Shown here: piece by piece, positions 6,803 to 60,069 of the stretch
Layout: each line of letters opens with the position of its first letter
How positions within the stretch are numbered: position 1 is the stretch's first letter
DNA from: Octopus vulgaris
Taxonomy: Eukaryota
Length of the DNA: 64,000 bases
NCBI GenBank assembly: GCA_951406725.2
Contig: OX597838.1
Location: 4,030,001-4,094,000, forward strand
Reading direction: 5' to 3'
Notes under the pieces: generated by a model
What the model saw: the letters and a program-made list of their open reading frames with translations, nothing else
Database searches by the model: none
Told to the model about the DNA's origin: nothing
Program-made: the position numbers and the translations under genes

Positions 6803-7044
6803 AAATTCACTGACAAATTTATTAGTTTACTTGTATGGGCCCCCCAAAATCTTATATGGACCCACAGGCCCAGTTGAGAATCACCGATATCTAGATCAAT
6901 CCAGATCTATGGTCAAAACATTACAGCCATGTCTGACCATCCTACCGTATTTTCCGAGAATTTATCTGTCGACTCCATTTATCCAATGTGTTCTACTTGG
7001 ACTAAAAGCTGTGTTTTGAGAGGAATTTGATTGCTATTTCTACA

Positions 7045-7274
7045 TGGGCATACGGTTTAGTGGTTAAGAGCGCGGGCAACCTGAATAATAATTATAACAA
7101 CATCGAAAAATACCTTAGGAATGAGAACCCAGGTTCAAAATTTCTCCAAGACACCTGATGAAGGCTGGAGGGTATATCAGCCGAAACGTTGTGTTAGCAA
7201 CAAACAAAATGAGGACAAATATCCGTCGAATGTAAATAATGTACATAATTCCTCATCTCTTAAATATAGAACTG
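7045..7274 (+). mobile_element. tRNA-headed SINE-like element carrying a hammerhead ribozyme; 10-bp TSD
   Basis: TSD TATTTCTACA at 7035-7044 and 7275-7284. 5' A-box-like ggtttagtggttaagagc (B-box deleted in this copy), (AAT)n linker, HHR body. Second copy at 59757-60041 (-). Confidence 0.8.
7150..7195 (+). ncRNA. Minimal type I hammerhead ribozyme (canonical core)
   Basis: GACAC-CUGAUGA-A-GGCUG-GAGGGUAUAU-CAGCC-GAAAC-GUU-GUGUU. Stem III is only the ACGU palindrome, as in dimer-acting Penelope HHRs. Confidence 0.8.
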
Positions 7275-7306
7275 TATTTCTACAAGGTCGTTTGATCTTG
7301 TGGAGG

Positions 7307-52792: not shown

Positions 52793-54865
52793 TTATTTTT
52801 TTTTAAAAAAAAAAACAAATTAATGAAATAAAAAAAAAACTAATAAACATTTCTTGGCCCTTTTTTTTTTCATTTTTATATTTATTTTGAAGGTATGTCT
52901 GCATGGTACCCTGTGCCAACAAAGTCCTTGAGTGAATTTGGTGGATGGAAACTGAAAGAAGCCCATCGTGTGTGTCTTTTTGCCACCCACCACCACCACC
53001 ACCACTTGACAACCAGTGTTGGTTTGTTTATGTCCCTGTAACTTGGTGATTCGGGAAAAGGGCCGAATAGAAAAAGTACTAGGATCGATTTTGTTTGACC
53101 AATCCTTTCGAGGCAGCAGTGCCCCAGCATGGCCACACTCCAGTGACTGAAACAAGTCAACAATAAAAGAGAACATTGATCTGCTATATTGCAAACCTTA
53201 CCAATTCTTCACCTCAACAGACCCCCTCCCCTTTGCCGCCTTTCCTTGCCTTCTTGTGCCAATGTTGAAAAAAGAAGAAATTGTTCCCCTTTAGTATTTG
53301 TTCTGCACTGTGTTAACATACACTCCCTTACAGTGATTAGTCCATCGGAGACCTGTAACCAATAATGATCAAGCTGTACAGATCTTCAGCTCAGAGCACT
53401 GTTCTCTGAAAACAGAAGAACCTGCTCATGAAATTCATGTGCAGGTGGCTGAGTACTCCACAGACACAGATACCCTTAACACAGAGCATGACATGGCTGG
53501 GCCCTTTGAATTACAGGTACAACTCATTTTTGCCAGCTGAGTGGACTGGAGCAACGTGAAATAAAGTGTCTTGCTCAAGGAGTCAATGTACCTATTTCTT
53601 TACTACCCACAAGGGGACAAACAAGGACACAAACAGATTAAGTCAATTGCATCGACCCCAGTGCGTAACTGGTACTTTATTTATCGACTCCCGAAAGGAT
53701 GAAAGGCAAAGTCGACCTCGGCGGGATTTGAACTCAGAACGTAGTGGCAGATGAAATACGGCTACGCATTTTGCCCGGCGTGCCAACGTTTCTGCCAGTA
53801 GGCTGCCTTTAGGGAGTCAATGTACCACCAGGAATTGAACTCATGTTCTTGTAATCACAGGCTAAATATCCTAACCACTAAGTCATGTGCCTTCACCATG
53901 TAGTTTTTAGTCTTCATCTTTTTCTTTTGTTTTTCCCCCCACTCCAAAGGTGTCCATCTATCTGAAAGCCATTTTTGAAGGTTGCTGGTTTTAATCTTTG
54001 TTCTGCGATGATTCTGTTGTGCTTTCATAAAAATTCAAAAAGACAAAAAAATAAAACAAATTGAAAAATTCAAAAAGTTACACAAAAAAAAACCCAAAGT
54101 TTTTGATAAAAGTAAATTTACTGAAAACGATGCTCAGTCATTTTAATCAAGAATTGGGTGGAAGGAATTGAAAAAGACGACTGACCATCAAACGACTTGA
54201 TTTGGAAAAGGAAAAAATATCAAAAATGACACTAGGTATCGTAATGAGTGGGAGGTGGGGGGCGGGGGGGGGCAGGGGTATGAAGAAGTGGGAACTGGCG
54301 TCCCTGGAGCCAAGGATGTCAAAGAGACAAGCCTGGCACCGAGGTAAGCACTTTAACCACAAATGATGTCTGGAATCAACTGTCAGTGCCAGATTGCTGG
54401 CAGAGTGAGGTGATAGGTTTGTCCTTTCACGTTTCACAAGTTTAGTCAGAAAGACATTCATAAAAAATATATGTATTTATGTAAAGTGAGAGAAATCCAC
54501 AGCGATTTCTATGTCTTTTTTTTGTCTTTTTTTGCAGTCTATTTATACTGATTTTTCTCTTTTTGTTTTTGTTTTGTTTGTTTATAAACTTTTGAGGAAA
54601 AATGATGAGAGACAAAAAATGTTTTAATGTTGGTTTAAAATCATAGATCAGGAAACCTCCTGATATTACCAATTCCATGAATTCCATGATGGCTAAGAAT
54701 GCACAAGACAAGTCTGATAATGACTCAGATCACACGACAAGTTTGAAAACTCAAGTGATACACACACAGCTACATGCACACAAACACACCCATATATACA
54801 CCAAATGTACCAACATACATACAAGTGGACCTCATGTCAGCTTCAGTGACAACTATTCCAGCTGT

Positions 54866-59756: not shown

Positions 59757-60069
59757 TACAGTTCTATATTTAAAAGATGAAGAATTATTTACATTTGACA
59801 GATATTTGTCCTCATCTTGTTTGTTGTTAACACAATGTTTCGGCTGATATACCCTCCAGCCTTCATCAGGTGTCTTGGGGAAATTTCGAACCTGGGTTCT
59901 CATTCCTAAGGTATTTTTCAATGCTGTAGTTGTTGATATTATTACTATTATTATTATTATTATTATTCAGGTCACTGCCTCAAATTGAACTCGGAATCTT
60001 GGGATTAGTAGGCCGTGCTCTTAACCACTACGCCATATGCCATAATTCCTCATCTCTTAAACACAGAAC
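59757..60069 (-). mobile_element. tRNA-headed, hammerhead-bearing SINE-like element (HHR 59829-59874) with an inverted copy of its 3' end at the 5' side
   Basis: Minus strand: A-box TGGCGTAGTGG, B-box-like GAGTTCAATT, (AAT)n, then GACAC-CUGAUGA-A-GGCUG..CAGCC-GAAAC-AUU-GUGUU. 60042-60069 is an inverted copy of 59761-59788. Confidence 0.8.

Follow-up and report, generated by a model that had tools for sequence, protein, structure and literature searches.

Minimal hammerhead ribozymes with the same features as the one described here are already known from the pseudo-LTRs (pLTRs) of Penelope-like elements (PLEs), according to the available sections of PMC4209133. The closest described elements are Poseidon_Ac of the green anole (PMC11167929) and Pen2a of Adineta (PMC3846280). 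In the accessible parts of those papers, both share with the octopus element a single ORF with an RT and, at its C-terminus, a GIY-YIG-type domain, a pLTR whose minimal hammerhead overlaps the ORF start, inverted 5' copies, short duplications and two RT start sites that give a 30-40-bp tail. Unlike either, as those parts describe them, the octopus pLTR has an A/B-box segment of tRNA origin as well as an AAT run, most octopus copies begin at the tRNA segment, and the sense strand lacks runs of four Ts (T4). The Poseidon_Ac hammerhead is described in the same partial text (PMC11167929) as cutting only with protein, as dispensable for insertion and as giving no RNA-seq ends.

TRIMp3 elements (Cassandra, Helenus and Ajax; available part of PMC10886601) likewise carry a small-RNA-derived Pol III promoter in a terminal repeat, which probably came from a SINE insertion. 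They are non-autonomous LTR elements with a PBS and PPT, whereas the octopus tRNA segment sits in a protein-coding element; here the repeat flanks a PLE ORF, rather than two LTRs with PBS and PPT enclosing no ORF. The same part of that paper argues that their autonomous partners depend on Pol II and ought to lack the shared repeat. Schistosoma Sm-alpha and Sj-alpha, as presented in the accessible portions of PMC2770079 and PMC8490949, are also tRNA-related, SINE-like and high in copy number with a type I hammerhead. Their hammerhead is canonical and active, whereas that of the octopus is of the minimal PLE type, and those portions name no autonomous partner, whereas that of the octopus unit is identified here. 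Animal non-LTR retrozymes are likewise short, non-coding and pLTR-related with a type I hammerhead, and are defined by tandem units and circular RNA (PMC7229834 and bioRxiv 10.64898/2026.07.22.740005, each in the sections available). The octopus family differs from them in being dispersed as single or head-to-head insertions and in having a tRNA head. Ohshima and Okada reportedly described tRNA-derived SINEs of octopus in 1994, under names said to include OK and OR1. These have tRNA-derived heads and probably come from the same animal group; the present unit may already bear such a name or be entered in Repbase or Dfam. OR2 is cited as a CORE SINE in the available text of PMC4758252.

The window, a stretch of 64,000 nucleotides from Octopus vulgaris, contains two copies of the unit. 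The first has the following features:

7035-7044, plus strand: left target-site duplication TATTTCTACA (from sequence)
7045-7083, plus strand: tRNA-derived pLTR head, internally deleted in this copy (from sequence, family majority and tRNA alignment)
7084-7100, plus strand: (AAT)n linker (from sequence)
7101-7274, plus strand: pLTR body of a Penelope/Poseidon element, with the hammerhead and the 5' end of the ORF (from ORF-bearing loci)
7121-7276, plus strand: codons 1-52 of the element's reading frame, with the ATG at 7121 the likely start (from loci L004 and L062)
7150-7195, plus strand: minimal type I hammerhead motif with the full set of core letters, predicted cut 7190/7191 (from sequence and fold)
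7244-7278, plus strand: PLE 'tail' between the two preferred 3' ends (body positions 143-149 and 174-178), which are the putative RT start sites (from end counts and the available part of PMC11167929)
7275-7284, plus strand: right target-site duplication TATTTCTACA (from sequence)

The first-pass annotation had read this copy as a 230-bp SINE-like unit within a perfect 10-bp duplication, with a tRNA-like Pol III head, an (AAT)n linker, a minimal type I hammerhead and no poly(A) or simple-repeat 3' tail. The duplication is present on both sides, the linker is where it was placed and there is no such tail. As the first four letters of the duplication also fit the family 3' end, the true end of the copy lies at 7274-7278. 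The hammerhead motif is intact, with stem I (GACAC/GTGTT), CTGATGA at 7155-7161, an unpaired A, stem II (GGCTG/CAGCC), GAAA and a palindromic ACGT; it has every feature of the minimal type I class (CUGANGA, the unpaired base, G10.1-C11.1, GAAA, a palindromic 15.2-16.2, NUH and stems I and II). The reading of the head was half right: A/B boxes in the family and alignment to tRNAs point to a tRNA origin, but this copy has no B box. With tRNA +1 at 7046, the A box at 7053-7063 carries three changes, and about 37-38 nt, including the entire B box, have been deleted between 7077 and 7079. Copy 1 is therefore no normal Pol III template. In L004 and L062 the frame at 7121-7276 continues into a PLE protein. 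We dropped the idea of a 38-nt GT..AG intron in the body, since an unbroken reading frame was available. The body also contains, at 7130-7142, a second B-box-like word, GGTTC[G/A]AA, without the conserved C, which could be the leftover of another tRNA-derived piece. Elsewhere in the window a short match to the head (53869-53891, minus strand, 19/23) is probably the A-box region of a different tRNA-derived SINE family.

The second copy, 89% identical to the first over 182 columns, comprises:

59757-60041, minus strand: the copy, with complete head, longer AAT run and body (from sequence)
59966-60041, minus strand: head, A box intact at 60035-60025, B box damaged at 59992-59981 (from sequence)
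59829-59874, minus strand: hammerhead motif, with a single change that breaks the stem III palindrome (from sequence)
60041-60069, plus strand: 29 nt of the element's 3' tail, inverted and adjoining the 5' end of copy 2 (from sequence)

This copy had been said to keep both box motifs. The copy and its A box are there, but the conserved C is missing from the B box (GAGTTCAATTTG), and the stem III palindrome now reads GAAACATT. The inverted tail piece had been overlooked, and no recognisable target-site duplication surrounds the copy.

An autonomous PLE with RT and GIY-YIG, of the kind the first-pass annotation anticipated, is present in the same genome and shares both head and body. In L004 the body passes in frame into a PLE-like protein. 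When 20 ORF-bearing loci were extended, the order ORF (RT, GIY-YIG-type end), 29 nt, head, AAT, hammerhead body, ORF start was found in L063 (twice), L065, L066, L068, L069, L073, L075, L077 and L080, and L236 is a copy of the whole element. The tRNA head thus starts 29 nt past the stop codon of the RT/GIY-YIG ORF. In L063, L068, L069, L075 and L236 pLTRs lie on both sides of the ORF in partial tandem. The element is about 2.6 kb long with a 2.4-kb ORF; the majority over 97 aligned pieces has a single open frame of 798 codons within a 2,687-nt unit. The ORF contains an RT domain (RVT_1, E 5.5e-10) and its protein has 992 relatives at E<=1e-20, the closest being 60-72% identical. A direct search of one decayed copy, P0121, gave no match to Pfam GIY-YIG; its C-terminus aligns (E 1e-62) over the Pfam GIY-YIG stretch of P0079, which places the C-terminal endonuclease of a PLE here. 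A PDB sequence search with the protein returned weak RT matches only, and no relative was found in viral contigs. By its structure the element is a Penelope/Poseidon PLE, the clade placement resting on domain order and similarity. Mobilisation by a Penelope-type RT, and the absence of a LINE 3' end, are thus supported, the 3' end being a PLE tail. Penelope-like ORFs, some with hammerheads, also occur in bacterial MAG records (L319-L332), probably through host-animal contamination of the assemblies.

The short copies proved not to be a hybrid parasitising a separate PLE, as had been proposed. Majority sequences computed, with duplicate loci kept in, from 78 short arms and from 41 ORF-linked ones are identical across 183 body columns, and from -7 onward a single position of the head distinguishes them; a few differences are in minor frequency and none is fixed. 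As the tRNA head lies within the autonomous element and the majority sequence is shared, the 230-bp unit is the pLTR of the PLE together with the first 52 codons of its ORF, and not a separate SINE. Among the features of a tRNA-derived SINE, the family majority has the tRNA head with A/B boxes; it has neither a LINE-shared 3' end nor an A-rich or simple-repeat tail, nor is it a lineage distinct from its helper.

The tRNA origin of the head is read from its A and B boxes and from alignment to the genome's own tRNAs. Both boxes are intact in the family majority, though not in copy 1. The best alignment was to tRNA-Arg, with a z of 7-8 against shuffles, among 35 tRNA sequences sampled from the genome, a set from which many isotypes are absent. 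The predicted fold is no cloverleaf. Rfam found neither the tRNA nor the hammerhead family, whether in the whole window at gathering level or in the head and copy 1 at E-value level, and ARAGORN found no tRNA in the window or among 47 control PLE loci. Those of the 44 control PLE ORF loci in which a hammerhead could be located had no A/B-box pair between it and the ORF end. At L294, which is a tRNA-Cys gene cluster, ARAGORN reads some variants as Ser(ACT) or Cys(ACA).

Head and hammerhead do move as one, as claimed: in 23 of 30 loci selected by the head, the body follows on the same strand within about 600 nt. The remaining seven mostly have a secondary insertion at the AAT run, which in other copies is a frequent site for LINE and SINE insertion. 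An independent SINE made of head and AAT run is not supported, since the AAT run of these body-less loci carries other insertions or deletions. LINEs with an RT and zinc finger, presumably R4/Dong-like by their motifs, have inserted into the linker and part head from body in L004 (3-1343), L031 (918-3257), L005, L016, L181 and L268. The L031 copy looks young, with open frames of 302 and 780 aa.

The family is abundant. The 33-nt hammerhead core has 2,819 exact matches in the 2.80-Gb genome and its reversed control none, so the repeat is not due to chance. When 80 ten-kb stretches placed at round coordinates were examined, 11 had an insertion, giving an extrapolated total of 38,500 (95% interval 19,000-69,000). 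Between 64 and 96% of sampled element words were present in the sequencing runs of six organisms. The family looks old: the 35 copies of at least 800 nt are 84-94% identical to the majority, and no intact ORF was seen among the copies. Two groups of 3' ends, about 33 nt apart, account for most arms: body positions 141-151 for 67 and 174-178 for 92, with 24 arms outside them. Head-to-head pairs combine one long and one short arm in 57 of 61 cases, and a duplication of at least 7 nt surrounds 37 of the 61, compared with 3.4% of 265 mismatched flank pairs; the duplications framing insertions are 7-14 bp long. An inverted 5' copy, with a 30-40-bp tail on one arm, is thus found here, as in the PLE structure described in the available part of PMC8557442. 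Some copies (L063, L064 and L081) extend upstream of the 5' pLTR, which shows that there were longer RNAs of several units. L222 and L223 (G000:C1:8942000-8951999 and 9048000-9055999), about 108 kb apart, are head-to-head insertions with kilobase arms; nearly identical, they probably reflect a segmental duplication.

It seems likely that RNAs made from a Pol III promoter in the pLTR are turned into SINE-like pieces by the RT of the element. The RNA would start at about -6 of the head, and the RT would prime inside it at either of two sites downstream of the hammerhead, so that neither a poly(A) nor a LINE tail would be needed. Priming in the first pLTR would give a copy of 230-300 bp; priming in the second would give ORF copies truncated at the 5' end. 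Two cDNAs primed on opposite strands may then join at their ends, aided by the GCCCAYGGGC palindrome. For the hammerhead, a partner copy or the element's protein is predicted to be required, and the sole natural same-strand pair would be the two pLTRs of a full-length RNA.

The 5' ends of the copies are central to this proposal. Exact counts of CpG-free 20-mers fell from 8,740 in the body (inside the 33-nt hammerhead core) and 5,148 in the head (+29) to 1,081 at -40, 859 at -146 and 132 at -1138. The loss per nucleotide across the head start was 0.023 raw and 0.031 normalised, against 0.002-0.005 in the other three intervals, making the rate at the tRNA start about ten times background. We then placed by script the 5' ends of 90 distinct arms with a head, drawn from sets that had not been selected on that end. 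Five lay at -31 or beyond, two at -26 and -20, none from -19 to -8, 29 from -7 to -1, 14 from +1 to +5, 15 from +6 to +14 and 25 further in; by eye, the inner-ending arms L126, L147, L172, L178 and L286 extend upstream across small indels. Copies thus have a sharp 5' boundary between -7/-6 and +5 of the head, and two ORF-bearing copies, L062 and L075, start at the head as well. Position -6 is 13 nt upstream of the A box, a usual distance at which a SINE starts.

The same boundary could arise in an ordinary PLE driven by Pol II, with the tRNA piece a passenger (an old SINE head and AAT tail caught in the 3' UTR) and the short copies 5'-truncated cDNAs that halted or switched template at the palindrome before the head. 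We consider this rather unlikely, though it accounts for several observations. An inverted partner is present for 25 of the 29 arms ending at -7 to -1, and positions -6 to +4 form the near-palindrome. In Adineta PLEs, which are without a tRNA, palindromes mark inverted junctions at pLTR 5' ends (available text of PMC3846280), and other PLE pLTRs carry TATA-like motifs. However, the octopus hairpin is just 3-4 bp, and copies without an inverted arm also start near +1 (copy 1 of the window, L174 with its 16-bp duplication, L151, L157 and L264). A passenger also leaves unexplained why the majority keeps its A and B boxes although the tRNA fold has gone, and why the ORF is short of T4 runs.

That deficit concerns the Pol III termination signal. 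The 2,687-nt majority has no TTTT in its sense strand, where shuffled versions had means of 5.0 and 2.5 (P 0.002 and, for the dinucleotide shuffle, 0.065), and a synonymous shuffle gave P 0.037; the deficit is weaker for these two stricter nulls. Single copies of the family have 31 T4 runs in 59.4 kb (0.52 per kb, observed/expected 0.24). As controls we used 44 distinct PLE ORFs of at least 350 aa out of 94 loci, which have 282 runs against 217 expected (4.0 per kb, observed/expected 1.30). All 12 control ORFs of at least 600 aa contain 6-20 runs, and the three of the 44 that have none are 1.1-1.4 kb long. Runs of four Gs are likewise absent from the majority (about two expected), as they are from 15 of the 44 controls. 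Four Dong-like ORF pieces of the same genome have 8 T4 runs against 9.7 expected, two of them having none. A distant PLE protein used as query in the genome returned the element's own family in 30 of 30 loci, so there is no PLE control from the same genome. The T4 deficit hints, short of proof, that termination by Pol III has been selected against. We can extend the Pol III proposal, tentatively and with the odds somewhat against it, to an autonomous PLE that is transcribed end to end from a tRNA promoter it has captured, has had its 2.4-kb ORF cleared of terminators and has spawned tens of thousands of SINE-like copies of its own promoter repeat.

RNA reads from organism C bear on the question in a limited way. 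Two raw runs, each sampled to about 6%, contained 8,796 and 6,492 element reads. Neither starts nor ends piled up at the head or the predicted cut site in these fragmented, unstranded libraries of mainly read-through, which are unsuited to showing a 250-nt Pol III RNA; the lack of RNA ends fits a Pol II-driven element. Depth was equal on both strands, 75-87% of reads ran into unlike sequence, and depth fell only about 2-3 fold across the head start. Loose ends were present at both preferred 3'-end positions. No RNA run was listed as containing the element in the sequencing-run records.

The view of the first-pass annotation, that the enzyme of a PLE, itself transcribed by Pol II, is parasitised by a distinct lineage of Pol III SINEs with master copies of their own, now seems improbable. 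Short copies outnumber ORF-linked ones 5-8 fold, and many have intact A/B boxes and are potential sources; the few minor-frequency differences noted above would also fit. However, the choice of query and the duplicate loci confound these differences, and neither the place of the head in the autonomous element nor the lack of any fixed difference suits a separate lineage. A retrozyme spreading through tandem arrays and hammerhead-cut circular RNA is largely refuted and most improbable, for although the minimal motif is intact and animal retrozymes stem from PLE pLTRs (available part of bioRxiv 10.64898/2026.07.22.740005), tandem units appear on the same strand in only 3 of 120 loci (two distinct insertions), only one of 42 arms starting at body position 15 or later begins beside the cut site (87-95), and the ends fit the PLE tail pattern rather than circular permutation. 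Both core boxes of the hammerhead are intact in 60 of 155 copies, with losses chiefly at CpG, and co-folding two hammerheads gave a wholly intermolecular duplex, which does not bear on the dimer. The predicted hammerhead appears to set no insertion ends.

What is new, set against the literature covered, is a tRNA-derived promoter segment within the repeat of an autonomous PLE. No description of a tRNA-bearing PLE pLTR was found in literature searches, whose scope excluded subscription journals, Repbase and Dfam, and the words hammerhead and ribozyme are absent from the main text of the 2026 Octopus vulgaris repeat annotation (PMC13282606). For annotation, the finding means that tens of thousands of seeming SINE copies in this genome are PLE ends. 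Autonomous retrotransposons are held to use Pol II. The available part of PMC10886601, on Pol III promoters in terminal repeats, argues that autonomous partners are unable to use them. If Pol III transcription of the element is true, a PLE with such a promoter and no T4 run would be a counter-example, and would offer a testable answer to how PLEs are transcribed. The element also shows a route by which a SINE-like family arises straight from the repeat of an autonomous element, without a LINE, and would, if so transcribed, be a model for the origin of hammerhead SINEs such as Sm-alpha.
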